NCBI GenBank assembly: GCA_964016885.1
Contig: OZ024741.1
Coordinates: 200,446,001-200,510,000 of the forward strand
Direction: 5' to 3'
Length of the DNA: 64,000 nucleotides
Origin: Eledone cirrhosa
Lineage: Eukaryota
Both the position numbers and the translations under genes were made by a program. The notes under the pieces are model-generated. The model did not search any database and was not told where the DNA came from. It was given only the letters and a program-made list of their open reading frames with translations. Each line of letters opens with the position of its first letter. Position 1 is the stretch's first letter. Of the stretch, positions 3,731 to 50,456 are shown piece by piece.

Positions 3731-4068
3731 GATCGAATTGTTAGGGCGTCGGATAAAATGCCATTGTGGTATTATTATTTCTTCTTCTTCTTCTTCTTCT
3801 TCTTCTTGTTCTTCTTCTTCTGTTGTTGCTGTTGTTATCATTATTATTATTGGTCGTTGAAGCGAATGGACGTACTATCGTGAGCACGAGTATGTTTGTT
3901 ATTTTAATGTGTATAAATCCTTTTGTTATTAATATTTTTGTTTTAAAAGGGGCATAAAACTTTAGTCTTTGCCTTCAAGAAAGGACTCAACATAATATTT
4001 GGGCCTTTTTTACCCAAATATTTAACCTTAAAAAAGATTTAAAAAGATTTTTTATCGAGAAAAAAAAC

Positions 4069-5844: not shown

Positions 5845-5873
5845 ACCTTTCCTCTCTTCTTTAGCCTACCAAC

Positions 5874-9701: not shown

Positions 9702-9968
9702 GCTGGTGAATATGAGAAGGCGAGGGGTACCCTTCCCGGGTGCTCTCGAAGACGGGGGGTTTAGGATTGGTGTGGTACATGAGTTGACCCTGGGGGATTA
9801 TACCCCCCACCCCGCATTGGGGAATTTTCATTGTTGTATTTCTCTTGCTATTTTGTTATTGTTAGTTATATTTTTTACACGTTGTATATGTAACCCCCAG
9901 TGTCCCTGTCTATTGTATTGTCCCCTATATGTTGGCCCTTGTGGCCAATAAAGGAAACCATTATTATT

Positions 9969-10152
9969 ATTGGCAGTATCGGTAGAGGGTTGGACGCCAT
10001 GCTTTCTATCATAGTTACGTCCCTTTAGGGTCTGAGTTCAAATCCCGCCGAGGTTAACTTTGCCTTTCATCCTTACGGGGTCAATAAAATAAAGTACCAG
10101 TAATGCACTGGGTAATTGCTGGCTTTGTGCCAAAAGTAGAAACAATTATTAC
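9969..10152 (+). mobile_element. tRNA-head SINE, main family
   Basis: A-box-like TGGCAGTATCGG, B-box GAGTTCAAATCC, core ctttgcctttcatccttacggggtc.ataaaataaagtaccag (resembles the Meta/MESC-type SINE domain, from memory), tail gtgccaaaagtagaaacaattatt. Confidence 0.88.
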
Positions 10153-10523: not shown

Positions 10524-10629
10524 ATTATTTATTCAAAGTAATCCAACTTATTTTACAAACTGGCTAAAAAAACAACAAAACCGTACGCAATCCCGCAGAC
10601 CTTCCTTTATTATAGTTTAGATTATTATT

Positions 10630-13600: not shown

Positions 13601-15842
13601 TGGCGGAGGCGCAGCGTGGTAATAAAACCACAATTCGCTCTTTGACGGACCGATACGGACACGATCTGAGCAATTCCAGGCGGATGTGTGAGGCCTTTCG
13701 CCAGTATTTTGCTCGGTTGTTCGGGAGAAGTGGTGGGTCAGAGACGGTGGCGGACTTCAGTCCCTACCTCGATGGCTTGCCGCAACTCTCGACGGCTGAC
13801 GCTGAGCGCTGCGAAGAAAGGCAGATTACTTCAGCCGAAATTCAGGATGCCCTTGTCGGCTGCATGAGGCGCAAGTCACCCAGTTTGGATGCTCTGCCCT
13901 ACGAGCTTTACGTAAATATGCCAGACGTGTTCTCCAATCTCCTTGAAGCGCTATGCTGCAACTGGCAGCAGAACGGGAGTATTCCTAGTTCTGTGAGCCG
14001 AGGCGTAGTGACGCTGATAAGGAAAGACGAGAACAAGAGGGACACATTAGATAATTTCAGGCCGATAACTCTGCTCAACACAGAGTTTGAGATTTTGGCC
14101 AAGGTGTTAGCGAAGAGGTTGGCGCTTCTCGTCAAGGATTTGCGGAGGCGCAAAATTGCGCAATCCCGACCAGGTACATACACGACAACTTCTACCTATT
14201 TCAATACATTATAGAGAGGGTAGGGTGTAAACCTGGCTTCAGTGGGGCTCTGATCAATTTAGATCAGATCAATCGAAAGCATTCGATAGGGTCGACCATC
14301 GGTACCTGGAGAATATGTATGGTTGACGGAAACGAAACTTAGCCCGGAAAAATCGGTGGGCTTGCAGCTTGCATGCCGTCCAACAGCGTCGCCGGGCGCT
14401 GGACAGACGGACCGATAAAGTTGCTTGGGATTTGGTTCGGGCCAGACCTCCAGGTGGATAAGAATTGAGATGAGCTGACGAGTAGGGTAGCCAGTCTCAC
14501 CCAGAAATGGGCTGCGACGAAGCTATCACTGAAAGGTCGCGCGGAGGTGGCGAACGCGTACATCGCGTCCGACATCTACTACCGCCTGGCCGTCGTCCCT
14601 TGCCCCCCATTTGCCCCTCGCCAACTTGGAACGGTTCCTCTTGAACTTCTTGTGGATGGGACAGGTTCCGTTGGTGAGGCGGTCCATCTACTGCCAGCAC
14701 CCTCTACGTGGAGTTGCTGGGCATGCCGTGTCTAATGATGCACAGACATACGCTGAGGCTGCGGCATCTTCAGATATTCTGCCTAAACGGTGAACAGGTG
14801 TGATCGCCGTTTGTCAGATGGGCCTTTACGCAGCACGTCTCTGTGACTGAGCTACAGTCCTGGGTTAAGAAAAGACCGAGACTGGGTGACTGGCATCTGA
14901 AATGTTGCCAGGCACTCACTGCTCTATACCAAGCGGGAAATGCGGTCAGTGGAAATTCCACTCTCGAGTTCTATAGAGGGTTAGCGGTGGGCAAGTGTGA
15001 CGACACACTCGGAGAGGCTCTGGGCGTTGACGATGTTGAACTAACCAGTCTGTCCCGGAAGACTTTCGAACCGGGGACGATGGATAATTTCCAAAAATCC
15101 CTCGATTGGCAGGACTACCGGGGGGGGGGGGGGGGGGCACTGCCGGTCTTAGATCAACTCTACAGGCACGGAAGTGCTGTCAGACGGACCTGCCCGTGAT
15201 GCACGCAGAGCGACGAAACCGTTCTGCACGCACTCGTCCAGTGTCCGTGCATTACTGACTTGTGGAGTTATGCCGAACAACTGTTGTCGCGTGTAGAACG
15301 GATCCGGCTATCGGCCGAGTCCATAGTGAAGATCGACCCACCGCCTTCTTTTGGCCAGGAAGGGCAGGCAATTTTCCTCTCTCTGGTGGCAGTGGCGAAA
15401 GAGGTTGCATGGTGGACCAGGTTGAAAGGACTAAAGACAGACGCTTTCCCCTTCGGCCAATCCCTCATCAACTTTTCCAAGTTTCACTTGGAAAGGAAGG
15501 TGACGGTGGAGAGGGAAGTGCTGCCCCCAACAGTACATTTTTTAAAGGGTGGGTGAATGTGGCGAGAATGGCCCGTGTGAATGGGCCTACTCTGATCATG
15601 GGCCTGTAGGCTGGTGAATATGAGAAGGCGAGGGGTGCCCTTCCCATGTGCCCTCGAAGACGTGTGGTTTAAGATTGGTGGGGTACATAAGTTGACCCTG
15701 GGGGATTATCGCCCTATTGGGAAATTTTTCATTGTTGTATTTTTTTTGTTATTTTGTTATTGTTATTTATATTTTTACACGCTATATATGTAAATCCCCA
15801 CTGTCCCTGTGTAGTGTATCATTCCCTATATGCCGGCCCTTG
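10630..15842 (+). mobile_element. Tx1 copy 2 (type A ORF1 10821-12499; ORF2 12529-15609, disrupted)
   Basis: Starts after (att)3. Knuckle CFGCGETTHLHAFC; APE motifs AVSET and GDWN; RT FRPITLLN; internal deletion near 14310; 3' end cut at ggcccttgt. Confidence 0.92.
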
Positions 15843-17122
15843 TCATCTGCCACCGCCTAACCGTTGTGCCTTGCCCCGGCCCAACTCTGACAAACATGGA
15901 GCGCCTCTTCTTCCGCTTTTTATGGAAGGGACGTGCTCCCATGGTCAGACGATCCATTTGCTGTCAACACCCGTTGCGTGGAGGGCTGGACATGCTGTGG
16001 CTGATGATGTGCAAACACGCGCTGAGGCTGCGACATCTCTGGTGCTTCCTTGACGGTGAGCAGGTGTGGTCGCCGTTCGCCAGACATGTTTTTCCCCAGC
16101 TCGTCTCATTAACGGAGTTGCAGTCCTGGATCAGGAAACCACCGAGGGATAGTGCTTGGAAGCTGGAATGTCTCCAAGCCCTCACAGCCTTCTACCAGCT
16201 AGGCACTAGTATCGTTGGAACATCCACCTCAGCGTTCTATAGAGGACTAGTGGAGGGCAAGAGTGACGACGTTCTCGGTGAGACCCTGGGCGTCGAAGAC
16301 GATCAGCTGTTCGCTCTCTTCAAGAGAACTTTCAGCCCAGGGCCTATGGACAACTTCCAGAAATCCCTGGCCTGGCAGTGCTACCGGGGAGCCATGCCAG
16401 TTCAAGATAAGCTCTACAGGCACGGAAGTGCCGTCAGCCAAACTTCTCCGAGATGCGCACAGACGACGAAATCGTTGTGCACGCACTCGTTCAGTGTCCG
16501 AGCATTGCTGATTTGTGGAGCTATGTCGATATTTGCTGTCACGGGTAAGACGGATCCGGTTATCGACTGAGTGCATTGTGCAGATAGCCCCGCCGTCCCC
16601 CTTTAAGGAGGAGGAAGGGCAGGCAGTTTTCATCTGCCTGGTGGCCATGGCGAAAGAGATTGTATGGTGGACAAGGTTGAAAGGATTGAAGACGAACACT
16701 TTCTTCTTCGGCGAATCCCTGATTAACTTTTACAAATTTCACTTGAAGGGGAAAATCACGGTGGAGAGACAGGTGCTGTCTCCAAATAAGTTTGTTGAAA
16801 GGTGGGTGAAAGTGGAGAGTCTGGTCCTAGTGAACGGGCCCGCTCTGAGTATGCGCCTGTAGACTGAGGAGTGGAAAACTGAGAGAGGGCGCTTGCCCTG
16901 GTGGTCAGCGTGGCCGCGGTCTTTTGTGTGGTTTTCGCCACGAGTGAGCCTCGGAAGTTTCCCCCCTATCGGGGGAAATTTTTGTTTTTTGAGATTTTTA
17001 TATTTCTATCTTGTTATATCCTTTTTTTACACGGTCAAAACCCACTTTGTATCGTCCTGTACCGTTCTGTGCCGTCTGTAATGTTTTTCTTCATGTTAGC
17101 TCTTGTGGCCAATAAAGAAACC
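15842..17122 (+). mobile_element. 5'-truncated Tx1 copy 2b (different subfamily), fused to the 3' end of copy 2
   Basis: ORF2 C-terminus VICHRLTVVPCPG...; distinct 3'UTR; ends cttgtggccaataaagaaacc followed by attattatt. Confidence 0.88.
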
Positions 17123-17147
17123 ATTATTATTAGTATTATTAGTATTA

Positions 17148-17333
17148 GGCGGTGGATTGGCAGTATCGGTAGAGGGTCGGACGCCATGCTTTGACGCATA
17201 GAGTTACGGCCCTTGCCATTCTGAGTTCGAATCCCGCCGAGGTTAACTTTGCCTTTCATCCTTACGGGGTCGATAAAATAAAGTACCAGTAATGCACTGG
17301 GTAATTGCTGGCCTTGTGCCAAAAGTAGAAACA
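17148..17333 (+). mobile_element. Full-length SINE, main family
   Basis: ggcggtggattggcagtatcgg...gagttcgaatcc...gaaaca; TSD attattagtatta at 17135-17147 and 17337-17349. Confidence 0.92.
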
Positions 17334-17352
17334 ATTATTATTAGTATTATTA

Positions 17353-17824
17353 TTCTTTGAGTCTCAGTCATTGATGTTATTTAACTGGAAAGTTTGTTGA
17401 AATGAATATCAAGCCGCTACCTGCAGCCTCAGATATTCAGGACGTATCGGAGGGTTCTTGCTGTTCCCAGCAAGCATGCCTTTTGAAGTGTTCAAAAAGC
17501 GGGGCTGGACTAATCTTCTTTAACCATCCTTGGAAACTCTTTGAGATAGCACCTAGTGCGCCTATGACAATCGGGACGACCTTGATTTCATGGCAGTTCC
17601 AAATTCTTTTTAACTCCCACTTTAAATCCTGGTATTGGTTAATTTTCTCCCAGTCCTTTTCTTGCACTCTCGTGTCAAATGGGCAGGCTACATCTACAAT
17701 CAGGCACGATCTTTTTCTAATTTCTTGTCCGTCTGTATCCTAAAATCCCATAGCACCTTCACCTGATCGTTTTCTATCACCGACTCTGGCTTATGCTCAT
17801 ACCACTTCTCAGAATGTGGTAAAT
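17353..17824 (-). mobile_element. R4/Dong-type REL-endonuclease LINE, 3' fragment
   Basis: WYEHKPESVIENDQVKVLWDFRIQTD and KINQYQDLKWELKRIW...VPIVIGALG; same 3'UTR as the copy at 49694-50424; (TAA)n tail. Confidence 0.88.
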
Positions 17825-20800
17825 CCGAAAGAATTTTGGAAATCCAGCAGCACTGTACGGTCACGTACCGTACAGTAAGCACAAAATCATGTAGGGTTGA
17901 AAGAGCCACAGAGGCTCAAATATAAAAAGCCTTAGGGTCTGTGTGGCAGCAGAAAACGCATATCACCCCACGCAAGAAATATGCCACCGTGGACGTGCTT
18001 TTTGCCACCACCCAGGAGGCAAAGGCTCAATCCTTGGTGATCCTAAGGAGAGAGGAAATGGTGTTGGTGCCCTCCTATTGCGGGCAAAAAATTGTGAGGG
18101 TCAAACTGACCCAAGTCCCCACCCACCCCCCACCCCCGGGATGGCCCCTTCTTGGCTGGCCGCGTCTGTCGTCGTCGGAATCGAGGACAAAACAACCGTA
18201 CTGCAAGTACAAAAAAAAGTACAAGAAGATTGGGTCGGCGCCTCCATTGAGATGTTAATCCAAACCAACCAGGAGTGCATCGAAGCTATCCCGGATGTGA
18301 TAGACTTCGATAACGGCACTCAACTTCCCATAAGTGTTGAGGGCAAACGCCCGAAATGCTTTCGCTGTGGGTTGAAGACTCACCTCAGGGCCTTCTGCAA
18401 TGAGAAGACCCTGAGAAAGGAGACCCCCCCTCCTTCCAAAACCGGCTCCACTGCTACCAGCAACAGGACAGGCGGCAAGCAGGAAGGATAGGTCCGTGGC
18501 ACCCATACCCACGCCACGGAAATCAAGAACAGCAACAGCAGTGGAAGTATTAACAACAACAACAGTAATACCAAATGCATCTGCAACAGAGACTCCACTG
18601 CAAACATCACCAACAAGAACAAGTGTAAGAATGGAGCTGGTAACCCTCCCCGACCTCACAGAATCGGACATGGAGTGTGTGGTGGGAGAGGGATGGCAAA
18701 AGGTCGTTAGAAGGCACAAACGCAGAAGCAGCGCATCGTCGCCTTCGAAAAGAGAGGAAAGAAATGAAAAAAGGGTAAAGGCTACTGCAAAGAGACTCAC
18801 AGCAGCAACACCACCAACATCATCACCACCCACATTAGCACCACCATCACCACCGGCGACAACCCCACCGCCAACAACAACAACACCTTCAACAACACCA
18901 CCACAAGCACCAACATCGCAAACACAACAACAAAACACACACACCCAGCAACAACAAGAAAATATCAGAACCACACCCCATCCCCAGAAAAAGAAATGCA
19001 CAGCAATAAATACACACAACAAGAAACTAATGACTCACATAATTGAACACACAGACATTTCACAGCACGACTACATAATACCAGCACCAATCAAAACACC
19101 AACGAACATAAGACTGGTAAGAATATCACAGAAACAATACACAAACATTAAAACGAAATTCCCCAACGCAGTTGGTGATTTCAGAGACCTAGGAGGGGAT
19201 ACTCAACCGGAGAGTATATTCGGATATACTCACAGAAGAGCCGACGACCAGCCGAAGGGACGATTCAACGGTCCCTTCACCAGACAATCAAGGAAAGTGA
19301 TCCTTTTTCACTTGCCCCGTTCCTCACCCAATATGGCCGTACTCAGAATAGGCAGTATAAATGCACGTGGCTTGGGATCATCTTGGAAGCAGTGTCACCT
19401 GCTCAACGACCTCAGGTCACTCAACATAGATGTGGTGGCCATCAGTGACACCAGAATCTCCGAAGCACAAGCCTTCGCACCGATCTTTGGCGGCTACAAT
19501 GTATACGCATCTCCCAGCCGTCCAGGATCGAGGGGAGGGGTCCCGTCCTTTTTCGGAGAGGCTTGCATATCGCCATATGGGCCATCTTCCTAGACCCAGA
19601 AGGTAAGTCGGTGGTGCTGGACGTGACCGGCAGCGAAGGCAGTGCTTTCAGGCTAGTAGCCGTCTACGCCCCAACAGGGGCAGGACGGCCAGATTTCTTC
19701 AGACGTCTAGAGACCTTTCTTGGAACGTCCCGCTCTTTAGTGTTAGAGGGCGATGGAACGGTATCTTGGATGCACGCTGGGATTGTGTGGGGCTAGTGGA
19801 TAGGGGAGGAGGGTGCAAGAGCCTCACCAACCTGCTCAGACGTTTTGAACTGTCTGACAGGTATCGACTGGATCACCCGAATGTGCTAATGTGGACATGG
19901 ACTAACCGCATCGGGTCATCCAGATCGTATCTCGATAGGGTATTCTGCAGAGAACTAGATAAGGCTAGTATAAGTTGTCCACAATTTAAAATAGTCGAGT
20001 ACACAGACCACAAATTTGTGATCTGTGAGATCGACATAGACAGACTTCATAGACAAGGACCCGGTTACTGGAAGCTGAACGCGTCTTTCCCGGCGCGCAA
20101 AGCCTACAGAGACCGGATTAGAGTATTAGTTAAGCGGGCCTTGACGGGAGCGGTCGTCAACAACAGGTGGTGGTTCGCCCTGAAAAGGGCAATTAAAGTA
20201 GAGTCGATTAGGTTTAGCAAAGGACTAGTGTTAGAGGAAAATAGAGTAGAGGGAGAGCTAGTCAGAAAGCTAGAGGGACGTTTAGGACAGGCATCGCAAC
20301 CGACGTGCTTGCGGCGAGATTGGCACTCGCCCAATTCTTCAACGCAAAACACGAAGGCTGCGTTGTCAGAGCTAAAGCGCGTGCTCTGAAACACGAGGGG
20401 ACAAAAGCCGTCCAATGGACCCGCGTGGCAGAAGCGCGACGTGGCAACAAAGCCATAATTCGGTCTTTGTCTGATCAAAACGGGCGCGTGTTGCTTGAAC
20501 CCGAGCAGATGTGTGAAGCTTTTTAGCAGCACTTTGTTGAACTGATCGGGAGCAGCGGCGGGCCGGATCGGGGTATGGACTTCAGTGCATACCTCGATGG
20601 ACTGCCTCGGCTCACGACGACCACAGCACAGTGTTGCGAAAAGCCAATAACAGCCAGTGAAATACGGGAAGCGATGGCTAGCTGCACGAGGGGTAAATCG
20701 CCAGGTTTGGATGGTCTTCCCTACGAGATTTATGCATTTATGCCAGACTTGTTCGGTGATCTCTTGGCAGACGTCTACTGCAAATGGCAGCAGAACGGGA

Positions 20801-22760
20801 GCATTCCTAGTTTTGTGAGCCGGGGAGCGGTGGCGCTGCTGAGAAAAGACGAGAACAAGGGGGATGTTATCGATAACTTCAGGCCCATAACCCTGCTAAA
20901 CGCAGAGTTCAAGATTTTGGCCAAGGTGCTAGCAACGAGGTTGGCGCTTGTCGTCAAGGGTCTGGTGAGAGAGGCACAGACATGCGCCATTCCGGACAGA
21001 TCCATACACGACAACCTCCACCTCATGCGATACATCATAGAGAGGGTGGTTAAGAAACCTGGCACGGGTGGGGCCCTGATCAACTTGGATCAATCCAAAG
21101 CATTCGATAGGGTCGACCATCGGTACCTGGCGGCGGTCCTCGAGGCAGCCGGTTTCGGGCCCGTTTTCAGGGGTTGGATCGCTGCGATGTACAGCGATAT
21201 CTGCTCAGTTGTGAGGGTGAACGGTCACCTGTCGCAGCCGTTCAGCATCATGCGCTCGATCCGCCAGGGTTGTCCCCTCTCGTCCATCTTGTACGTATTG
21301 GCACTCGAGCCGTTACTGCACAAACTGGGGGCGATGAGGGGCGTCCCACCCGAACTAGGATGCGGGAAATCCGAGTCGGCCTACGCCGACGACGTCATCG
21401 AGGTGGTGTGGAGCACCAGACACCTCCAGATGCTCTGCACCGCTCTTAAGGAATACGAAGCGATGACAGGAGCAAAGATAAACCAGGAAAAGTTGGTGGG
21501 CTTGCAGCTCGGCACCTGGAGAGGAAAGTCCATGCCGTCCGACAGCGTCGTGGCGCCTTGGACGGACGGGCCGGTTAAATTACTCGGGGTCTGGTTCGGA
21601 CCGGACCTCCAGATGGAGAAAAACTGGAACGAGGTGACGAGCAAGGTGGCCTCCCTTACCCAGAAATGGGCCGAGAGGAAGCTGTTCCTGAAAGGGCAGG
21701 CGGAGGTGCCGAATGCGTACATAGCATCCGTCATCTGCTACCGCCTCACCGTCGTCCCTTGCCCCGGCCCAACTCTCACCAAAATGGAGCGCCTTCTCTT
21801 CCGCTTTTTGTGGAAGGGAGGCGCTCTCATGGTCAGACGATCCATCTGCTGTCAACACCCGTTGCGTGGAGGACAGGGCATGCCATGGCTGATGATGCGC
21901 AAACATGCGCTGAGGCTGCGACATCTCTGGTGCTTCCTTGACGGTGAATAGGTGTGGTCGCCGTTCGCCAGGCACGTTTTCCCACAGCTCGTCTCCTTGA
22001 CGGAGCTGCTGTCCTGGGTCAGGAAAAGACCGAGGTATAGCGCTTGGAAACTGGAATGTCTCCAGGCGCTCACTGCCCTCTGCCAGCTGGGCATCAGTAT
22101 CGGTGGAACATCCACCTCGGCATTCTATAGATGACTAGTGGAGGGGAAGGGTGACGACGTTCTCGGAGAGATTCTGGGCGTCGAAGCGATCAGCTGTTTG
22201 CTCTCTTCCGGAGAACTTTCACCCCAGGGCCTATGGATAACTTCCAAAATCCCTGGCCTGGCAGTGCTCCCGTGGATCGTTTCCGGTTCGAGATAAGCTC
22301 TACAGGCACGGAAGTGTCGTCAGCCGAGCCTATCCGAGATGCTCGCAGAGCGACGAAACCATCGTGCACGCACTCGTTCAGTGCCCGAGCATTGCTGACT
22401 TGTGGAGCTATGTCGAACAGTTGCTGTCGCGTGTAGGATTGATCCAGTTATCGACTTAGTCCATTGTGCAGATGGTCTCGCCGTCTTCCTTCGAGGAGGA
22501 AGGGCAGGCGGTTTTCATCTGCCTGGTGACCATGGCGAAAGAGATTGTGTGGTGGACAAGGTTGAAACTGTTAAAGACAGATACTTTCCTCTTCGGCGAA
22601 TCCCTAATTAACTTTTTCAAGTTTCACTTGAAGAGGAAAATGAGCGTGGAGAGGCAAGTGCTGCTTTCTAGCAAGTTTGTTGAAAGGTGGGTGAATGTAA
22701 CGAGAATGGTCCGAGGGAACGGGACCGCTCTGAATATACGTCTGTAGTTTGAGAAATGGG
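17825..22760 (+). mobile_element. Tx1 copy 3 (5'-truncated type B ORF1; ORF2 19333-22747, disrupted)
   Basis: Knuckle CFRCGLKTHLRAFC. ORF 20575-21951 carries the RT core (FRPITLLN, LDQSKAFDRVDH, RQGCPLS, YADD). 3'UTR missing. Confidence 0.92.
20575..21951 (+). pseudogene. Longest open piece of Tx1 ORF2: reverse transcriptase domain (458 aa)
   Basis: SPGLDGLP, FRPITLLNAEFKILAK, KAFDRVDH, QGCPLS, AYADD; bounded by a premature stop on each side. Confidence 0.93.
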
Positions 22761-30990: not shown

Positions 30991-31105
30991 TTTTCTTCTA
31001 TCATATATACACTCTGCCTGCGCATAGAGTACTTGGTTTGGCACCAACACCAGTACTTCACCGGACTACCTACACTATATATATAGTAATAATAATAATA
31101 ATAAT

Positions 31106-34100
31106 GATTTCATTTATTAGCCACAAGGGCCGACATGTAGGGGACAATACAAAGGCAGGGACAGTGGGGGTTTACAATAAGGTCGAGTAAAAGTGCACAA
31201 TGGCAAGACTAATTTAACAATGAAAATATAAAAATATAAAATAAACTATGCATAAATATAACAAAATAAATTCCCCGATAGGGGGTGGACGACCCTGGGG
31301 TGATTCGGGTACCCCACCAATCCTGAACCACCCTGCGCTTTTAGGGCACCCAGGAGAGCACCCCTCTCCTCAAGTTAGCCTGCCTATAGGCGCATGGTCA
31401 GAGTAGGCCCATTCACACGAGCCATTCTCGTCACATTCATCCACCTTTTAGCAAATGTACTGGGGGAAAGCACTTCTCTCTCCACCCTCACCCTCCTTTC
31501 CAGGTGAAACTTGAAGAAGTTGATGAGGGATTGGCCGAAGAGAATAGTGTCTGTCTTTAGTCCTTTCAACCTGGTCCACCATATAATCTCTTTCGCAACT
31601 GCCACCAGACAGAGGAAAATGTCCTGCTCTTCCTGACCTAAGGAAGGTGGCGGCTCTATCTTCACTATGGACTCGGCCGATAGCCGGATTCGTTCCACAC
31701 GCGACAGTAGCTGTTCGACATAACTCCACAAGTCAGTAATGCACGGACATTGGACAAGTGCGTGCAGAACGGTTTCGTCGTTCTGTACGCATCTTGGGCA
31801 GGTCCGTCTGACAGCAGTTCCGTGCCTGTAGAGTTTATCCCGAACCGGCAGTGCCCCCCCCCCCCCCCCCCCCGGTAGCACTGCCAAGCGAGGGATTTCT
31901 GGAAATTGTCCATCGTCCCCGGCTCAAAAGTCCTCCGGTACAGACTGGTCAGTTCGACTTCGTCGAGGCCCAAAGCTTCTCCGAGTGCGTCATCGCACTT
32001 GCCCACCACTAATCCTCTATAGAACTCGAGAGTGGAAGTTCCACTGATCGCATTGCCCGCTTGGTAGAGGGCAGTGAGTGCCTGGAAACATTCCAGGTGC
32101 CAGTCACCCAGTCTCGGTCTCTTCTTGACCCAGGACTGCAGCTCAGTCAAAGAAATGAGCTGCGGAAAGGCCCGTCTGATAAACGGCGACCACACCTGTT
32201 CACCATTGAGGCAGAATATCTGGAGATGTCGCAGCCTCAACGCATGTCTGCGCATCATTAGCCACGGCATGCCCAGCCCTCCGCGTAGAGGGTGCTGGCA
32301 GCAGATGGACCGCCTCACCAACGGAACTTGTCCCCGCCACAAGAATTTGAAGAGGAGCCGTTCCAACTTGACGAGGCGCAGACGGGGGCAAGGCACGACG
32401 GTTAGGCGGTAGTAGATGACGGACGCGATGTACGCATTCGCCACCTCCGCGCGACCTTTCAGTGATAGCTTCCTCCCAGCCCATTTTGGGGTGAGACTGG
32501 CTACTCTGCTCGTTACCCCGTCCCAATTCTTTTCCACCTGGAGGTCTGGTCCGAACCAAACCCCGAGCAACTTTACTGGTCCGTCCGTCCAGCGCCCCAC
32601 GACGCTGTTGGACGGCATGGGCTTGCCTCTCCAGGTTCCGAGCTGCAAGCCCACCGACTTTTCCGGGTTAAGTTTGGCTCCTGTCAACCTTTCATATTCC
32701 TTCAATAAGGTGCCGACCACCTCGATTTCTGAGGTGTTCGACACCATCACGGTGATGTCGTCCGCATAAGCCGACACCGCCTTTCCACGTCCCGGTTCGA
32801 GCGGGATGCCCTGCAACAGCTCCAGCTTCCGCAGTAAAGGCTCGAGAGTCAATACGTACAGAAGGGAAGAGAGAGGGCACCCTTGACGGACCGATCGGGA
32901 GAGCCGAAATGGTTCCGAGGTGTGGCCATAACCTTGACCACCGAGCGTGTGCCGCTGTGCATTGCAACGATCCAGCTTCTAAAGACAGGGCCGAAGCCAG
33001 CTGCTTTGAGGACAAACTCCAGATACCGATGGTCGACCCTATCGAATGCTTTCGATTGATCTAAATTGATCAGTGCCCCACCAGGTTTACACCCTACCCT
33101 CTCTATGATGTTTCGCATGAGGTGGAGATTGTCGTGTATGGACCTGGCTGGGATTGCGCAAGTTTGTGCCTCCCCAACCAAATCCTCGACGACAAGCGCC
33201 AATCTCTTTGCTAACACCTTGGCCAAAATCTTAAACTCTGTGTTGAGCAGAGTTATGGGCCTGAAGTTGTCTAATGTATCCCTCTTGTTCTCGTCTTTCC
33301 TTATCAGCGTCACCACTCCCCTGCTCACAGAACTGGGAATACTCCCATTCTGCTGCCAGTTACAGTAGAGTGCTTCGAGGAGTTCGGAGAACAAGTCTGG
33401 CATATTTACGTAAAGCTCGTAGGGCAGGCCATCCAAACCGGGTGACTTGCGCCTCATGCAGCCGACAAGGGCGTCCTGAGTTTCGGCTGAAGTAATCGGC
33501 CTTTCGCAGCGCTCAGCTTCGACCGTCGAGATGCGCGGCAAGCCGTCAAGGTAGGGAGTGAAATCCGCTACTCTCTCTGACTCGCCACTCTCCCTGAACA
33601 ACCGAGCAAAGTGCTGGCGAAAGGCCTCACACATCCGCTTGGAATCGTTTATCTCGTGTCCGTCTCGGTCCGCTAAAGACCGAATTGTGGTTTTATTACC
33701 ACGCTGCGCCTCCGCCACGCGGGCCCATCGAACAGCTTTAGTTCCCTCGTTTCTCAGCGCACGCGCCTTAGCTCTGACAATGCAACCTTCGTGTTTGGCA
33801 TTGAAGAAATGGTCTAAGGCCATTCTCGCCGCTAGCACGTCAGTTGCGATGCCACTACAAATAACCTCGTCTAACTTATCTACCAGCTCCCCCTCCTTTC
33901 TATTTTTCTCTAACGCTAGTTCTTTTCTGAACTCTATCGAAGTTACTCTAATCTCTCTTTTGAGAGCCCCCCACCATCTGTTGTTGATGATCCCCCCCCC
34001 TGTCAACTTTTGCTTAACTAACTTGTTGACTCGGTCCCTGTAAGGCTTACGTGCCGGAAATGACATGTTCAGCATCCAGTAACCCGGTCCTAACCTACGC

Positions 34101-36174
34101 GTTTTATTTAGGTCGACCGTACAGATCACAAATTTGTGATCTGAATAGGCGACCGTTTTAAAAAGTGGACAGCCCACACTATTTCTATCTATTTTCCTAA
34201 TGAAGATTCTGTCTATATACGATCTAGATTACCCCCATTCGGTTGGTCCATGTCCATACTGGCACATTGGGGAAATCTAGTCGATACCTGTCAGACAGTT
34301 GGAACTGGCTGAGTAGGTGCTTGAGGCTTTTGCACCCCCGATCCTATCGGCTACTCCCACACAATCCCAGCGTGCGTCTAAGATGCCATTCCAGTCCCCC
34401 GCTAACAGTAAAGGGCGAGACGTACCCAGAAAGGTCTCCAGGCGCCTAAAGAAGTCAGGTCGTCCGGCCCCTGTAGGGGCGTAGACGGCCAGCAGTCTAA
34501 AGGCACCACCTTCGCTACTGCTCACATCCAAGACCACCAACTTACCGTCCGGGTCCCGGAAGATCGACCTTACCTCGAGATCCAGTCCTTTCCTAAACAG
34601 CACTTCCACCCCACCCCCCATTCCCGGCCTGCTAACAGATGCGAAGATCTGATAGTCGTCGAAAATGGGGGCTAGTGCGCGCGTGTCGGAAATTCTTGTC
34701 TCGCTTACGGCAATCACATCCATTTCCAGCGACCGGAGGTCGTTGAGCAGGCGACCCTGCTTCCAGGGTGACCCCAGGCCGCGAACATTTAAACTTCCTA
34801 CTCTTAATATGGCCATATTGGTAAGCTAAGAGAGAGAGAGGGAAGGTTTACTTACCTCCCGGGTCTTGTGAAGGTCGGGTGGTTCGACCTCCATGGCTGG
34901 TGGGGTTTCTTTTGGGAACCCCTTTAAAAGTCTTGATGTGGGTTTCACATTCGGGTTTCCCACGTCTTGAGGAAAGCTCTCTCGAATTTCTTTGAAGGAA
35001 TTGAGTGACATTCGGATCAGAAGCAAATCTTCTGGCACGCAAAATGTGCTCATTTCAAAAATCTCCCCTCTGTTTGAATGTCCTCGCTTCGCGCTAAGAG
35101 GGCCATCAGTTTATCGTTGGCCCTTCTGACAAGCACGAAGTTTTTAACATTTTGTTGGTGTGGTTTTATTTGTTTTCGTTTTGGTGAAGGTGGTGGCGAT
35201 GGTTTTGGTGGTGTTGTTTCGGGTATGTCTATGTTTGTTGTAGGTGTGGTGTCTGCAATTTCAGGTATTTGTGTGTTTATTTGTACTTGTGTTTGTTTAG
35301 GTTGTTTGCGTTTCGGGGATTGTGGAGGTGGTGTCGATGTTGCTGATGGTGCTGATGTTATTGGGGAAGTGTTTGCGTTAGTGGTGTCTGTATTTTTTGT
35401 TGTGTGTTTTTTTGTGTTTTGTTGGGGCTTTTTTTTTTGTGAGTCTTCTCTGTTTTTTTGCACTTTTGGGTTTTCCTTCATCTTCGCTGCTGGAAGACAA
35501 AGGGTCTGTGTCTGTGAGTGTCTCTGTGTCTGTGTGTGCGTTTATTTTTTTTTTGTCTATGTGTATAATTGGGGGGCGGGGGGAGCTTTCCTCGTTTTCT
35601 CCTTGGATTGGTTTTGGTGTTGGTGGTGATCCGGCTGCTTTTGATGTTGGTGTCCGTGTTTTTGTTGATGTTGTTTTTGGTGGTGGTGGTGCAGCTTTCC
35701 GTGCTGACACTGGCGTTGGCAACAAAGGAGGTTTGCGACCCCCTGCATTTTTGCGCTGAGGGCAGAAGGCTTGAAGATGCGTTGCTTCCCCGCAAACGAA
35801 GCAGCGTGGCCTTCTTCCGTCAATCATTAGTTGGATTGTTGTCCCGTCCTGCAGGCGGGCAAAATCTGGGATGTTATTCATATCCTCCGGTTTCATTTGG
35901 AGAAGAATCTCCAAATCCATTCCGGACCAGTCCTCTCTCTCTGTCCTTTTGATGTCCAGGAGGGTGGTGTCTGTCCCCTCCTCGATTACGCATCCCAGCA
36001 GCCACCATATGTTCATTCCTGGTGGGATGCTGGGAATGCGTACCTTCACTGTCCTTTTACCCATATAGGACGGATGCATGATAATGCGTTCCGTTCTGCA
36101 GGGGGTCACCGAGTGCTTAATAGCGAGGGCCTCGGTTTTGAACAGTATCGAGATGGTACCGAACTGTTTGCCTC

Positions 36175-36175
<1 letters not shown>
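31106..36175 (-). mobile_element. Tx1 copy 4 (5'-truncated within type A ORF1; ORF2 34816-31384 nearly intact)
   Basis: (TAA)n at 31088-31105 and 36176-36223. ORF2 pieces contain APE, RT (AYADD) and the C-terminal CPRC...ETVLHALVQC motif; a few frameshifts, mostly at G runs. Confidence 0.95.
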
Positions 36176-36225
<50 letters not shown>

Positions 36226-37415: not shown

Positions 37416-37738
37416 GCTACATGCAGCCTCAGATACTCAGGACATATCGGAGGGGTCATGCTGTTCCCAGCAAGCATGCTTTTGAAGTGTTCCAAAAAAG
37501 GGGATTGGATTAATGTTCTTTAACCATCCTTGAAAACTCTTCGAGATAGTACCTAGTTCTCCTATGACAATCGAGACAATCTTGATCTCATGACAGTCCC
37601 AAATCCTTTTTAATTTCCCCTTTAAATCCTGGTATCGGTTAATTTTCTCCTTCACCTTTCTTGCACTCTTGTGTCAAAGGGGCAGGGTACATCAACAATC
37701 AGACACGATCATTTTTCCTTTTCAAAAACTACCAGGCC
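37416..37738 (-). mobile_element. R4/Dong-type 3' fragment, older copy
   Basis: KINRYQDLKGKLKRIWDCHEIKIVSIVIGELG; the truncated 5' end abuts (ATT)4. Confidence 0.82.
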
Positions 37739-37920: not shown

Positions 37921-38010
37921 CTATTATTCTTTTAACGTTTGTTCTATTTTGTCAGCAATTGTGACAAAACGTTTTGACAATCGATTGTTTAAAGCTGTTT
38001 ATTATTTATT

Positions 38011-39175
38011 GGTAAAATATCTTTCTAATAACCATCGTGGAACGGTTCCAAAGACGAATTTTGCTATGGTTTTCCTTCAAAAATTTCAAAATGGCCTGTT
38101 CCTTTATTGGCAAAAGTAATGAGTCAGTATTTTTAGAAGCTGTTGATACGAGTGGGGAGACTGAAACATCAGTTTGTGCTCCCAAACAAGACAAAAGCAA
38201 CAACAACAACAACTTCCTAGCTTTAATACTGCCTTCACCACAAGATATGCTGGATGTCAAAACACACACAAGAAACAACAACAACAACAACAACAACACC
38301 AGCATCACCACCAGCAGCAACAAAGAAAACAACAGCAACAACAACAACACTACCGACAACATCAACAACAACCAGCAACAACAGCAACTCATTCCCCGCT
38401 GCCAAGAAAATGCCATGTTTTCATATGGATCTAACTCCCAAGGAACAACGTTTGGCCCAGGCATGGCAAATAATCAAGCGGGGAAAAAACCTGGGCCAAC
38501 CTAAATGTCCCGGCTGAGGCAATGGAGGCGTTGGAGCGCAGAAGAATCACGTACAAATGCGTTTCGGTCCGGACTCGCAAAGCGGAGGTAACGCCTTGAG
38601 CTGAAGTTGAGGCTGCATTGAAGTGCATCTAAGAGATATTGAATTCAAGACAATGGGCAAACAATTTGGCACTATTTCAGTGCTGTTTAATTCCGAATCC
38701 CTCGCCCTAAAACCCTAACCCTAACCCTAACGCTAAAACACCCAGTGGCTCCCTGTAAGATGGAGCAAGTGGTGATGTATCCGTCCCACATGTACAGAAG
38801 AATAGTCAGGGTCCGCATTCCAAGAATCCTACCAAGACTGGACTTTTGGGGGCTCCTGGGATGTGTGATCGAGGAGGGCATGGATGCGTCACTCATTGAC
38901 GTCACCAAAACAGCTAAGGAGGACTGGTCTGGGGTGGATTTGGAGATCCTTCCCCAAATCAAACACGAAGACATAAAACGCATCCCGGACAACCATATAA
39001 GTGAGCACTGGGGGCCTTACAGAATTGGAGCGGCTTCTTTTCAACTTCTTGTGGAAGGGACAGGTTCTGTGGATGAGACTGTCCATCTGCTGCCAGCACC
39101 CTCAACATGGAGGCCTGGGCATGCCATGGCTAATGATGCTCAATATACGCTGAGGCTGTGGCATTTCCAGATACA
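38011..39175 (+). mobile_element. Internally deleted Tx1 copy (ORF1 5' part joined to a short ORF2 C-terminal piece)
   Basis: Starts after ttatttatt. QRLAQAWQIIKR and RRIVRVRIPRI, then a jump near 39000 to LERLLFNFLWKG...CCQHP. Confidence 0.82.
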
Positions 39176-42422: not shown

Positions 42423-42492
<70 letters not shown>

Positions 42493-42494
<2 letters not shown>

Positions 42495-43107: not shown

Positions 43108-43173
43108 TTATTATTCCACAATGCTTCAAGCAAACTTCAATACTCTCTTATATATATATATACACACACACAC

Positions 43174-43220
<47 letters not shown>

Positions 43221-43573: not shown

Positions 43574-43692
<119 letters not shown>

Positions 43693-43714
43693 TAATAATA
43701 ATAATAATAATAAT

Positions 43715-46700
43715 GATTTCTTTATTAACCACAAGGGTTTACATAAAGTAGACATTAAGGACAGTGCAGGACAATACAGGACGGTACAAATGGGCATTTC
43801 TGCGTGTAAAAAACAAAAACAGAGGATGTATAAAAAAAATAATGAAAAATTCCCCAATAGGGGGGAGACTTCGGAGGGACATTTGTGGAGAAAGCCCAGT
43901 AAAAGGCCACAGTGAACCTGCCCACCAAGGCAAGTGCCCTCTCCCAGTTTTCCACCTTTAATTTACAGATACGTACTCAGAGTAGGCCCATTCAGTCGGG
44001 CTATTCTTGCTTCTCTCACATATCTTTCAACAAAATGCTGGGAAGAGAGCACTTCCCTCTCTACTCTGATTTTCCTTTTCAAATGAAATTTGAAAAAGTC
44101 AATCAGGGCATCACCGAAGAGGTAAGTGCTCGTCTTCAGCCCTTTCAAACGTGTCCACCATACTATCTCTTTCGCCATGGCCACCAGACAGATAAAAACT
44201 GCCTGCCCTTCCCGGCTAAAGGAAGAGGGCGGGGCAATCCTCACGATGGACTCAGATGATAGCCGGATCCGTCCTACACGCGACAGCAGGTGTTCGACAT
44301 AAACCCACAAGTCAGCAATTTTCGGACACTGGACAAGTTCGTGCAGGACGGTTTCGTCTCCCTGCGCGCATCTCGGACATGCCCGGCTGACGGCACCTCC
44401 ATGCCTGTAGAGTTTATCCCGAATTGGCAAGGCTCCTCGGTAGCACTACCAGGCCAGAGATTTCTGGAAGTTGTCCATAGGTCCCGGCCCGAAAGTTCTT
44501 CCGAAGAGATTGGCTAGTTGATTTTCGTCGACGCCTAGAGTTTCTCCAAGTAGTTCGTCGCTCTTCCCCTCCACTAATCCTCTATAGAACGCCGAGGTGG
44601 AGTTTCCACCGATCACATTACCCGATTGGTCGAGGGCTGTGAGCGCCTGAAGACATTCCAGTCTCCAGGCGCTCCCTCTCGGTCTTCGCTTGACCCAGGA
44701 CTGCAGCTCCGTCAAGGAAACGAGCTGCGGAAATACGTGTCTAGCAAATGGCGACCACACCTAATCACTGTCGAGGAAGAGGTGGAGATGTCGTAGCCTG
44801 AGCGCGTGTCTGCGCATCATCAGCCACGGCATGCCCAGCCTTCCACGTAGCGGGTGTTGACAGCAGATGGACCGCCTGACCATCGGAGCGCGTCTCTTCC
44901 ACAAAAAGCAAAAGAGCAAACGCTCCAGCGCAGTCAGGCGGGGCTTAGGACAAGGTACAACGGTCAGGCGATAGCAGATGACAGACGCGATGTACGTGTT
45001 AGCCACCTCCGCTCGACCTTTCAGGGATAGTTTCCTCTCTGCCCATTTCTGGGTGAGAGAAGCCACCCTGCTCGTCACCCTGTCCCAGTTTTTGTCCGTC
45101 TGGAGGTCCGGACCGAACCAGACCCCTAGCAACTTAACAGGTCCGTCCGTCCAGCGTCCGACGACGCTGTTGGACGGCATAGACCTGCCTCTCCAGGTGC
45201 CGAGCTGCAGACCCACTGACTTTTCCTGGTTGATCATTGCTCCTGTCACCGCTTCGTATTCTCTTAGTGTAGTGCCGATCGCCTCGATGTGTTTGGCGTC
45301 GACACCACTACGGTGACATCGTCTGCATATGCTGACACGGATCTTCCGCATCCTAGTTCGCGCGGGACGCCCCTCAATGTCTCCAGTTTGTGCAGTAATG
45401 GCTCGAGAGTCAATACGTACAAGAGGGACGAGAGGGGACATCCTTGGCAGACCGAGCGCATGATCTTGAACGGTTCCGAAAGGTGACCGTTCACTCTCAC
45501 CACAGAGCAGATGTCGCTGTGCATGGCAGCGATCCAGCCTCTGAAGACGGCCGCCCTCAGGACTGCCGCTAGGTAACGATGGTCGACCCTATCGAAAGCT
45601 TTCGACTGATCTAAATTGATCAAGGACCCACCCGTGCCAGGTTCCCTAGCTACCCTCTCTACGATGTATCGCATGAGGTGGAGGTTGTCGTGGATGGATC
45701 TGTCGGGAATGGCGCATGTCTGTGCCTCTCTCACCAGACCACCAACGACAAGCGCCAACCTCTTTGGTAGCACCTTGGCCAAAATCTTGAACTCTGCGTT
45801 TAGCAGAGTTATGGGCCTGAAATTATCTGTTATCACCCTTGTTCGGATCCTTTCTCAGCAGTGCCACCGCTCCTCGGCTCACAGAGCTGGGAATTCTCCC
45901 GTTCTGTTGCCAGTTGCAGTAGACGTCCGCCAAGAGGCCTCCGAACAAGTCTGGCATCTGTACGTAAAGTTCATAGGGCAGACCATCCAAACCAGGCGAT
46001 TTACCCCTTGTGCAGCCAGTCATTGCCTCCCGTACTTCAGCGGCTGTTATCGGCTTTTCGCAACACTCCGACTCAGTGGCCGAGAGCCGCGGCAGTCCGT
46101 CGAGGTAGACACTAAAGTCCATCCCTCGACCCGGCCCACCGCTGCCCCCGAACAGTTGAGCGAAGTGTCGCTGAAAAGCTTCACACATTTGCCCGGGATC
46201 GAGTAGCATGCGCCCGTCGTGTTCCACCAAAGACCGGATCGTGGCTTTGTTTCCACGACGCGCCTCCGCCACTCGGGCCCATTGAACGGCTTTCGTCCCC
46301 TCGAGTCTGCGAGCACGCACCCTAGCTCTGACAACGCAACCTTCGTGCTTTGCATTGAAGAATTGGTCAAGGGTCAATTTTGCCGCAAGCACGTCGGTCA
46401 CGATGCCTTTGCTAAGTGCTTCGTCTAATTTTCTAACTAGTTCTCCCTCTGCTCTATTTTTCTCTATTGCTAAAGTCTTACTAAACCTAATGGATTCTAT
46501 TCTAATCGTTCTTTTCAGAGCAAACCACCACTTGTTGTTGACGATGGCCCCCGTCAACGCCCGCTTAACTAGTTCGCTAATCCGGTCTCGGTAGGCCTTG
46601 CGCGCTGGTAAGGACGCGTTTAGCTTCCAGTAGCTGGGTCCTCGTCTATGAAGCCTATCTAAGTCAAGCACACAGATCACGAATTTGTGGTCCGTGTAGC

Positions 46701-49675
46701 TGACTATCTTGAATTGTGTACAGCCTATGCTAGACCTATCTATTTCCCTACAAAATACTCTATTTTGATCTGGATGACCCTATGCGATTTGTCTAAGTCC
46801 ACATTGGCACATTCGGGAAATCCAATCGGCACCTGTCAGACAGTTCAAAACGCCTGAGCAGGTTGGTGAGGCTCTTGCACCCTCCACCCCTATCCGCTAA
46901 TCCCACACAGTCCCAGCGTGCATGTAAGATCCCGTTCCAGTCGCCCACTAACACTAAAGAGCGGGACGTTCCAAGAAAGGTCTCCAGACGCCGGAAGAAA
47001 TCAGGCCGCCCTGCTCCTGCCGGGGCATAGACGTCCAGCACCACCAACTTGCCCTCTGGTTCCAGGAAGATGGCCCGTATGGCGAGATCCAAACCTCTCC
47101 GAAAAAGCACAGTAACTCCTCCCCCCGATCCAGGACAGCTGGGAGATGCGTACACATCGTAGCCGCCAAAGATCGGTGCGAAGGCCCGTGCTTCGGAGAT
47201 TCTGGTCTCGCTGATGGCCACTACATCTATGTTTAGTGACCTGAGGTCGTTGAGCAGGTGACCCTGCTTCCATGACGACCCCAAGCCACGCGCATTTATA
47301 CTGCCTATTCTGAGTGAGGTCATGTTTAAAATGGAGTGGAAAAGATGGGAAAGACCACTTACCGTACTTTTCGTAGAGGAAGGATGGTTTCTCCATCCCT
47401 TTTCACTTGATCGTCTGGTGAAGGGACCGTGAATCGTTCCTTCGGCTGGTTGTCGGCTCTTCTATGAGTATGTCCGAATATACTTTCCGGTTGAGAGTCC
47501 CTCCTAGGACTCTGAAATCACCAACTGCGTTGGGGAATTTCGTTTTAATGTTTGTGTATTGTTTCTGTGCTATTTTTACCAGTCTTATGTTCGTTGGCGT
47601 TTTGATTGGTGCTGGTATTATGTAGTCGTGCTGTGAAATGTCTGTGTGTTCAATTATGTAAGTCATTAGTTTCTTGTTGTATGTATTTATTGCCGTGCAT
47701 TTGTTTTTCTGGGGGTGGGGTGTGGTTCTGCTATTTTCTTGTCGTTGTTGCTGGGTGTGTGTGTTTTGTTGTGTTTGCGATGTTGGTGCTTGTGGTGGTG
47801 GTGTTGAAGGTGTTGTTGTTGTTGGCGGTGGGGTTGTCGCCGGTGGTGATGGTGGTGCTAGTGTGGGTGGTGATGGTGTTGGTGGTGTTGCTGCTGTGAA
47901 TCTCTTTGCAGTAGCCTTTACCCTTTTTTCATTTCTTTCCTCCCTTTTCGAAGGCGACGATGCGCTGCTTCTGCGTTTGTGCCTTCTAACGACCTTTTGC
48001 CATCCCTCTCCCACCTCACATTCAATGTCTGATTCTGTGAGGTCGGGGAGGGTTACCAGCTCCACTCTTTCACTTGTTGTTGTTGGTGATGTTTGCAGTG
48101 GAGTCTCTGTTGCAGCTGCATTTGGTATTACTGTTGTTGTTGTTAATACTTCCACTGCTGCTGCTGTTCTTGACTTCCGTGGCGTGGGTATGGGTGCCAC
48201 GGACCTATCGTTCCTGGTTGCCGCTTGTCCTGTTGCTGGTAGCCGTGGAGCCGGTTTCGGAAGGAGGGGGGTTTTCTCCTTTCTCAGGGTCTTCTCGTTG
48301 CAGAAGGCTCTGAGGTGAGTCTTCGATCCACAGCGAAAGAATTTCGGGCGTTTGCCCTCAACACTTATGGGCAGTTGAGTGCCGTTATCGAAGTCTATCA
48401 CATCCGGGATAGCTTCGATGCACTCCTGGTTGGTTTGGATTAACATCTCAATGGAGGTGCCGACCCAATCTTCTCTTACTTTTTTCTGTACTTGCAGTAC
48501 AGTTGTTTTGTCCTCGATTCCGACGAGGACAGACGCGGCCAGCCAAGAAGGGGCCATCCTGGGGGGGGGGGGGGTTAGTTTGACCGTCACAATTTTTTTC
48601 CCGCAGTCGGAGGGAACCAACACCATTTCTTCGCTCCTTAGGGTCACTAAGGATTGAGCCTTTGCCTCCTGGGGTGTGGCAAAAAGCACGTCTACGGTGG
48701 CATATTTCTTGCCTCGGGTGATATGCGTTTTCCGCTGCCACACAGCCCCTAAGGCTTTTTGTATTTGAGCCTCTGTGGCTCTTTCAACCCTACGGGATTT
48801 TGTGCTTACTGTACGGTACGTGACCGTACAGTGCTGTTAGGTTTCGAAAAATGTTTCGGCTACCTTTCAGATTGCTCGGTGTCCGGTTTTCGTCACCATC
48901 TTCTTCGCTTCCTGTAATTCCTCATTTGTTATGAGGATGGTTTCCAGGTTCTTTGCGATACCTGCAAACGAGATTGGTTTTTCTTTGCTGCTGTTGTCGT
49001 TGTTGTTGTTGTCGTCAGAGCTGCTGTTACTTTTGTTGTTGCTGCAGGTACTACGTCTACTGCCGCCGCCACTGTGGTTGTTGTTGTTGTTGCTGCTGCT
49101 GCTGTTGTTGTTTATGTTGCTGCTAATGCTGTTTCGGCTACTGTTGTTTTCCTTGTCACTGTTGCTGCTGCTGCTGTTATTACGGCTGCTACTGCTATTA
49201 TTCATAACGTCAGACGAATGAAATGGGTTTTCGTATTTACCGCACACCTTTTTCGTCATTGTCGTCGTCGTGGAGAAATCTTCCATGATTTTCACGTGAT
49301 TTTTCTTGACTGGCGTCGCTAGCGAAAGAGAAGGGAGGGAGAGGGACACATTTAGAGACGGGAGGGAGAGAGACAATCTTCTCTCTGCTGTAGTGACGAT
49401 TGAGGAAGAAGAAGACGGAATGAGTGGGAGTGACCTATGAAAATTATTTTTCGTGGCCATGTTTTTCTTGGGTTTAAAATAAATATTGGGCACAAAACCC
49501 CAATAAGCGGTTATTTAACCCTGAAGGGCCAAATAACGGGCAGAAAGACCCCTCTCACGAGGAGGAGGGTGTTTTTGTCTACAATTTGGTTAAAGTTTTA
49601 AACAATTTACAATTGTTATAGCGGTCAAAATTTACAATACCTTACAGAGCCGAGCCTCCGTCAACCATGGCATTC
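43715..49675 (-). mobile_element. Tx1 copy 5, full-length (type B ORF1 from 49460; ORF2 47323-43963), disrupted
   Basis: (AAT)n at 43691-43714 and 49676-49693. APE (GSINARGL, AISET, GDWN), RT (AYADD), CPRC...ETVLHELVQC; 3' end aacccttgtggttaataaagaaatc. Confidence 0.95.
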
Positions 49676-49693
49676 AATAATAATAATAATAAT

Positions 49694-50423
49694 GGAATGT
49701 TAATGGCTGCGCAAGAGCAGGCCCTCAAAACGAAGTGGTTGAAACACCATATTTACAAGGAGGAGGCTAGCCCACTGTGCAGGATCTGTGGAGAGAGAGA
49801 GGAGACTGTGGCTCACAAAGTATCCGAGTGTAAACACCTAGCCCAGACTCACTATAAGGGCTGGAGACATGATGTGATGGGCAGGGTGATCCACTGGCAC
49901 CTATGCAAAGTAAACAATTTACCACATTCTGAGAAGTGGTATGAGCATAAGCCAGAGTCAGTGATAGAAAACGATCAGGTGAAGGTGCTGTGGGATTTTA
50001 GGATACAGACGGACAAGAAACTGGAACACAATAGACCTGACCTGGTGGTTGTGGACAAAGAAAAAAGATCGTGCCTGATTGTGGATGTGGCCTTCCCATT
50101 CGACACGAGAGTGCAAGAGAAAGAGAGGGAGAAAATTAACCGATACCAGGACTTAAAGTGGGAGGTAAAAAGGATTTGGAACTGCCATGAAGTCAAAGTG
50201 ATCTCGATTGTCATAGGCGCACTAGGGACTATCTCAAAAAGTTTCCAGCGATGGTTAAAGAAAATTGGCCCCTTCACGCTTTTTGGAACGCTTCAAAAGG
50301 AATGCTTTCTGGGAACAGCAAGAACCCTCCGATACGTCCTGAATATCTGAGGCTGCGGGTAGTGGCTTGATATTCATTTCAACAAACTTTCCAGTTAACT
50401 AACATCAATGACTGAGACTCAAA

Positions 50424-50424
<1 letters not shown>
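49694..50424 (+). mobile_element. R4/Dong-type LINE, 5'-truncated, with an open CCHC + REL endonuclease frame ending at 50350
   Basis: AAQEQAL, CRIC...ETVAH..SEC, RHD, LWDF.IQTD, RPDLVVVD, IVDVAFP, EKINRYQDL; (AAT)n on both sides. Confidence 0.93.

Positions 50425-50456
<32 letters not shown>

Follow-up and report, generated by a model that had tools for sequence, protein, structure and literature searches.

A likely Tx1-clade LINE of the octopod Eledone cirrhosa sits preferentially, and in one orientation, in ATT microsatellites

Introduction

Within the Tx1 clade of long interspersed nuclear elements (LINEs), Kibi, Koshi and the crocodilian Tx1 families have (TC)n, (TTC)n and (TTCC)n/(TTTC)n as their targets (PMC4494074, PMC3812793), and the first of these sources treats a family as target-specific when one repeat type occupies >20% of its flanks (PMC4494074). 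Crocodilian Tx1-Mar and the short interspersed nuclear element (SINE) SINEU have a common target preference, for Mariner, and are taken there as a mobilising pair; the SINEU heads derive from small nuclear RNA (snRNA). Dong, of the R4 clade, is recorded in TAA repeats of silkworm, mosquito and snail (PMC3812793). Sequence-specific elements with an apurinic/apyrimidinic-type endonuclease (APE) are reported from the Tx1 and R1 clades only (PMC6007223). For octopuses, L1-Tx1, Dong or RTE families are on record, with no target preference given in the accessible sections of the reports (PMC13282606, PMC8967140, PMC9115989), and the curated annotation of O. vulgaris describes hot spots of transposable elements (TEs) with no mention of targets in those same sections (PMC13282606). 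Here we describe a LINE family from the octopod Eledone cirrhosa, found in a window of 64,000 nucleotides (assembly GCA_964016885.1, contig OZ024741.1, positions 200,446,001 to 200,510,000), whose copies sit preferentially and strand-specifically in (ATT)n arrays. The copy under study, copy 4, reads on the minus strand from window position 36175 to 31106.

Results

Copy 4 is 5,070 nt long and retains the domains Exo_endo_phos, RVT_1 and zf-RVT. On the plus strand its flanks read (TAA)6 at 31088-31105 and (TAA)16 at 36176-36223. Its alignment to the full-length copy L074 (5,902 nt, 97.5% identity; L numbers denote loci) starts only at position 833, and other copies extend about 830-900 nt farther 5'; copy 4 is therefore 5'-truncated about one third into open reading frame 1 (ORF1), with the repeat on both sides, as a preliminary description of this DNA had stated. 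Full-length copies of the family are ~5.9 kb long and start directly after (ATT)n. The parts of copy 4 are as follows.

31088..31105, minus strand: (ATT)6 that follows copy 4 on its 3' side and is likely target DNA for the most part (window letters)
31106..36175, minus strand: copy 4 (subfamily A), lacking 832 nt at the 5' end when set against a full-length copy, ORF2 broken by frameshifts (domain search and alignment to the full-length copy)
31106..31130, minus strand: 3' terminal segment with a predicted short CUUGU-loop hairpin, then AATAAA and GAAATC; the SINE 3' end is similar
31384..34816, minus strand: ORF2 remnant with APE endonuclease, reverse transcriptase (RT) and zf-RVT, spread over three frames
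35762..35803, minus strand: single CX2CX4HX4C zinc knuckle of the ORF1 remnant (window letters and L064 ORF1 translation)
36176..36223, minus strand: (ATT)16 directly 5' of the truncation point (window letters)

A 37-mer of the subfamily A 3' untranslated region has 838 exact matches in the 3.0-Gb genome, and the sister subfamilies B and C have 5,901 and 828; all three counts are lower bounds on copy number. Junctions of subfamily A were sampled blind, as the first 72 matches on one contig to a pattern that excludes the tail. Two matches that were already known (both full-length, both with 5' ATT) were left out. Of the remaining 70 copies, one could not be resolved at its 5' end and another, a duplicate, was later removed. 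A junction was called ATT-positive at ≥10/12 matches to a phase of ATT, ≤6 nt away, and the background comprised 56,920 scored positions from twenty fixed stretches of 10 kb each. Automated scoring placed ATT at 30/59 truncated 5' ends, 8/10 full-length 5' ends and 61/70 3' ends. After two copies were re-chained and the duplicate dropped, 32 of the 58 truncated 5' junctions were positive, compared with 321 background positions (0.56%), an excess beyond chance. Expressed as shares of flanks in this subfamily, ATT is found at 55% of the 5' ends of truncated copies and at 87% of the 3' ends. Among the nearest kin of copy 4 (32 of the 40 closest), 18/22 truncated and all 10 full-length copies are ATT-positive at the 5' end; their 3' ends were left uncounted because the query contained 6 nt of tail. 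The enrichment is confined to one strand and one unit. At the 59 truncated junctions the opposite-strand AAT was never seen, nor were CA or GGT, and TA, GTT and CTT occurred twice, three times and once. Perfect arrays in 200 kb of background number 57 for CA, 514 for TA and 5 for ATT. The CA, TA and GGT repeats, said earlier to be unused, are seldom (TA) or never (CA, GGT) seen at these junctions, although CA and TA arrays are the more abundant.

Evidence on whether the array was there before the insertion comes from a dispersed host repeat with 455 exact matches, within which several LINE copies lie. This repeat (L397-L426) consists of TG, TA, ATT and GTT microsatellites in fixed order. The empty sites are in this case paralogs within the genome: of the 30 retrieved, 28 have no interruption and show the ATT array between their arms, another contains a Dong-like insertion and the last is deleted. 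Inside this array, with both arms present, sit five LINE copies (L079, L151, L156, L292 and L310) and one SINE (L139), none of which was found in the adjoining TG or TA tracts. Duplications containing letters other than those of the ATT unit flank L112, L310, L328, L166, L149 and L146, and the first three are clean target-site duplications. At non-array sites, L112, L328, L293 and L305 are flanked on each side by a short duplication or a host repeat and lack an ATT tail, which argues that the tail is mostly target DNA. The one-strand 5' enrichment, the array in paralogous empty sites and the missing tail at array-less targets together support the targeting of a pre-existing ATT repeat.

Several observations pull the other way. 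Twenty-six of the 58 truncated junctions (45%) lack ATT, nearly all of them without a duplication, and resolved 5' ends are ATT-positive in only 5/15 copies of subfamily B (33%) and 5/19 of subfamily C (26%). The loss of 5' ATT is independent of divergence (15/25 vs 17/33 positive, p = 0.6); since it does not grow with divergence, later deletion is undemonstrated. The pattern used to find empty sites came from the left arm of a filled site, which itself contains ATT units; the central array of the host repeat lies outside that pattern. The duplication at L328 begins ATAT. A bulk test for informative duplications gave 11/100 against a null of 2-9, not clearly above the null, and is not used as support. 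Some of the ATT-negative junctions are called ends that lie at a fusion or an internal break, and 3' ATT tails are present in 26/30 copies of subfamily B and 19/30 of subfamily C. With 26 of 58 junctions lacking 5' ATT and subfamilies B and C scoring lower, the family shows a strong, strand-specific preference for ATT arrays and not a strict specificity. The target-specificity proposed in the preliminary description thus stands in this weaker form.

A few copies lie at ATT/CTT borders (L023, L093, L144, L299 and L301). The first of these could plausibly be read as having a 70-bp duplication; it lies inside a long CTT tract and is not relied on. Nor do we rely on microhomology at 5' junctions (29/45), for which the null is too low when ends are defined by alignment. 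In five loci (L119, L122, L124, L153 and L155) a subfamily A copy without 5' ATT is followed by a subfamily B 5' end, an arrangement for which co-transposition from a read-through RNA is possible. A search of joints in public sequencing reads for empty alleles, at the window and L002, listed no joint that skips the element and was swamped by other copies. The flanks of 56 distant metagenome loci, mostly ~30% identical, held no ATT array and are too distant to inform.

The 3' end of the LINE is shared with a transfer RNA (tRNA)-type SINE that has 8,199 exact matches in the genome: both ends carry CTTGTG and GAAAC. Reading by eye, we take the SINE to have both an A and a B box, with a middle part that resembles Deu/Nin; with ARAGORN, no tRNA gene was detected in the window. 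ATTAT stands directly after 25 of 30 SINE copies, and duplications of 12-20 bp, each with ATTAT as its first letters, flank 10 of the 30 (8/870 for mismatched pairs). SINE neighbours of the sampled LINE copies are on the same strand in 34 cases and on the other in one. The predicted CUUGU-loop hairpin shows changes on both sides in 4/6 pairs, with a covariation of 0.403 on 14 hand-picked, related rows (0/500 shuffles). Three results count against so simple a link. The slid control of the covariation reached 0.353, the folding energy was better than that of shuffles in only 1/6 ends, and (ATT)3 stands at 2/30 SINE copies compared with 44/69 LINE copies. Since the SINE rarely uses arrays, one motif is not the full explanation for both elements. 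As the SINE with the shared tail uses ATTAT outside arrays, what is recognised is probably a short core motif, ATTA(T). Taken together, the LINE likely mobilises the SINE as a pair. The use of arrays in one case and of single motifs in the other would be accounted for if the RNA of the LINE had a longer, read-through AUU end, or if the SINE were moved by a sister family that is less strict. SINE variants with a different body and the same CTTGTG and GAAAC tail occur at window 59868-59927 and in L085, L088 and L270.

The best match of ORF2 in the PDB is mammalian L1 ORF2p (E 9e-55). The APE catalytic motifs align to those of L1, and the endonuclease hairpin loop equals that of L1 in length. The element has the features of the L1 group: an N-terminal APE, an RT, a C-terminal zinc domain, 5' truncation and, in the three clean cases, duplications of variable length. 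ORF1 holds a CCHC zinc knuckle (CFVCGEATHLQAFC in the L064 translation), which is a feature of the Tx1 clade; Pfam gave no ORF1 match. In the first protein search the best named match was a coral protein labelled Transposon TX1, and the nearest named homolog is from Argonauta hians (69% identity over the RT region). ESM Atlas returned only unnamed RT/APE clusters. In an RT tree of 55 sequences, which included no Kibi, Koshi, Xenopus Tx1 or vertebrate L1, the octopod sequences group together (support 1.0), next to a sister group without a named member (1.0). The family falls among Tx1-like sequences (one from Stylophora with a 'TX1' label and the U2-flanked L346 and L348) through a joining node with a support of 0.28, and L346 and L348 stand in a clade separate from the octopod family (0.998). 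Membership of the Tx1 clade appears likely, on a tree without named Tx1 families. The sister group (P0002, P0046-P0105) comes from metagenome assemblies at ~50% RT identity, with some clusters of hundreds of members. The metagenome contigs L346, L348 and L366 carry Tx1-like elements, which in L346 and L348 lie beside U2 snRNA, in the manner of Keno; L366 has a U1 snRNA at the contig end.

Two further LINE families of this genome were compared.

Window 49694-50454, 17355-17824 and 37417-37736, loci L221-L250: Dong-like LINE flanked on either side by (AAT)n
Window 26541-29100, loci L191-L220: RTE family in TA, ATGT or GAT repeats at truncated 5' junctions and at 3' ends

The first, which we label Dong-like from its motifs and target, has 2,375 exact matches; of its truncated copies with a resolved junction, 9 of 14 are preceded by (AAT)n. 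Eight of 30 Dong-like tails join directly, in a tail-to-tail arrangement, onto a Tx1-like 3' end, and Dong-like neighbours of the sampled LINE copies lie on the opposite strand in 11 cases and on the same strand in one. The RTE control has ATT at 0/13 resolved truncated junctions, and 11 of the 13, read by eye and including two near-duplicate pairs, follow TA, ATGT or GAT runs. The ATT preference is thus specific to the family, yet microsatellite use is common among the LINEs of this genome; the targeting of microsatellites put forward earlier holds for ATT in this family and is not special to it. Subfamily B also forms head-to-tail arrays: in 100 matches, neighbours 5.7-6.3 kb apart lie on the same strand 11 times and never on opposite strands.

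Repeats are densely clustered in the window, whose other copies are as follows.

3840..9971, plus strand: copy 1, of a diverged subfamily, bounded by (ATT)4 on either side and holding a 1-kb insertion, with a SINE after the tail
10621..15843, plus strand: copy 2, with (ATT)3 at the 5' end and a clipped 3' end that is joined to the following piece
15841..17147, plus strand: subfamily C 3' piece without 5' ATT (fused to the clipped end of copy 2), with a degenerate ATT tail
17148..17354, plus strand: tRNA-type SINE between ATT runs, with a 3' end that resembles the LINE 3' end
17355..17824, minus strand: Dong-like LINE 3' piece, whose ATT/AAT run is common with the SINE tail, on the opposite strand
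17825..22747, plus strand: subfamily B-like copy after the Dong-like copy, 5' junction without ATT, 3' end missing
38001..39173, plus strand: 5' fragment behind an imperfect ATT run (TATTATTTATT)
43691..49693, minus strand: copy 5, subfamily B, ~5.96 kb, with (ATT)6 at the 5' end and (ATT)8 at the 3' end
49694..50454, plus strand: 5'-truncated Dong-like LINE, preceded by (AAT)6 and followed by (AAT)10, the 5' run being common with copy 5

Copies 1, 2 and 5 and the fragment near 38011 had all been described as starting after ATT repeats; this holds for the three copies, and the fragment has the imperfect run given above. The insertion in copy 1 (window 7394-8398) has inverted ends starting CAGTG and is presumably hAT-like. 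Two adjoining long inverted repeats bounded by TA runs (window 42419-43566) are possibly non-autonomous DNA transposons. A tandem array of ~201-bp units containing the SINE 3' part occupies window 57818-58781, and SINE copies stand as inverted pairs at window 59530-60480.

Discussion

The reading that we favour, with a probability of roughly 0.72, is that a LINE of the L1/Tx1 group sits preferentially and strand-specifically in pre-existing (ATT)n, likely through APE nicking at ATTA(T) and AUUA pairing. By analogy with target-primed reverse transcription, the APE endonuclease would nick the AAT strand at the ATTA(T) core, and the short AUUA end of the RNA would pair at the nick and prime reverse transcription. 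A staggered second nick 12-25 bp away would then duplicate part of the array, which would leave ATT in front of even truncated copies. Each insertion would thereby keep an array at both ends and renew the target, from which head-to-tail arrays and nested clusters like that of the window could grow. The tRNA-type SINE likely borrows the same enzyme through the common 3' hairpin. We infer that the APE domain is the source of specificity. A wider picture is more tentative, and we hold it at somewhat less than even odds: an undescribed octopod Tx1 lineage would recognise ATTA(T), read its RNA via the CUUGU hairpin and drive one of the most abundant groups of octopus SINEs, and together with the opposite-strand Dong-like LINE it would make ATT/AAT arrays a self-renewing landing site that builds nested clusters, with RTE in TA/ATGT arrays.

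The preference could instead lie in the RNA, with a loosely A/T-specific endonuclease and a read-through (AUU)n end of the transcript pairing with the nicked strand. In each family the tail unit equals the 5' flank unit (TA/ATGT for RTE, AAT for the Dong-like LINE, ATT here). Short motifs also go with the short ATTAT end of the SINE, and arrays with the LINE. A model of this kind has been proposed for RTE (PMC6007223), and nicking by L1-EN alone is less defined than integration (PMC1950540). A long obligatory (AUU)n tail sits poorly with the non-array copies L112, L328, L293 and L305, which have no extra ATT units, and the target choice of the Tx1 clade is attributed mainly to the endonuclease (PMC4494074). 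We think it unlikely as a replacement for endonuclease targeting at ATTA(T), with which it could act jointly.

That there is no targeting at all, with a tail made by the element through slippage and 5' ATT brought by template jumps onto the tail of another element or by SINE or Dong copies that arrived later beside the LINE, is largely refuted and to us very improbable. A LINE or SINE tail does lie directly upstream in 12 of the 32 ATT-positive truncated junctions, and the Dong-like copy looks younger in 2/16 tail-to-tail pairs. No such tail precedes the other 20 positive junctions, which speaks against a general origin by template jumping. In 14/16 pairs the LINE copy is nearer its relatives than the Dong-like copy is to its own (the sets differ in size and selection), and uninterrupted paralogs carry arrays while non-array sites carry no tails. 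Passive accumulation, in which random insertions survive only in repeat-rich neutral DNA, would suit so dense a cluster and is the hardest of all to credit, as it cannot yield the one-strand polarity (AAT 0/59), the avoidance of far commoner TA and CA arrays, or different units for different families.

Compared with Kibi, Koshi and the crocodilian Tx1 families, the element is likewise an APE-RT LINE on one strand of a microsatellite, and its ATT share is far above the 20% mark. The unit is ATT, the host is an octopod and the copies number thousands; the separation is by target only, as none of those families is in our tree. The pyrimidine-rich (TC)n/(TTC)n target of the Kibi/Koshi lineage is not that of this family (CTT at 1/59). 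Dong has a restriction-like endonuclease; the family described here uses the same microsatellite on the opposite strand and has an APE domain. Tx1-Mar with SINEU also pairs a Tx1 element with a SINE; here the SINE is tRNA-type, with an ATTAT core and a common hairpin-like 3' tail. Mammalian L1 ORF2p nicks at TTTT/AA and primes on poly(A). The duplications are of similar size in our family, which unlike mammalian L1 has no poly(A) tail, has a CCHC knuckle in ORF1 and is matched by a SINE with common 3' sequence, a hint of the stringent type. Keno, the U2 snRNA-specific Tx1, is of the same broad group, with U2-flanked elements in a separate clade, and the target here is ATT arrays in place of U2 genes.

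No ATT-targeting Tx1 and no octopus Tx1-SINE pair appeared in the open literature searched; Repbase, which that search did not cover, or the figure and supplements of PMC4494074 could list an ATT-type target. Relative to the open literature, then, the earlier suggestion of an undescribed lineage stands, and ATT likely extends the list of target units of an already known type of element, one that here has a likely SINE partner.

If so, a large, young family adds a new target unit to the sequence-specific APE elements, and a candidate partner LINE can be named for a very abundant octopod SINE. The same preference may offer a sequence-level reason for TE hot spots in octopus genomes. Three LINE clades in one genome, each with a tail matched to a different microsatellite or strand, would make endonuclease control and RNA-pairing control testable by swaps.

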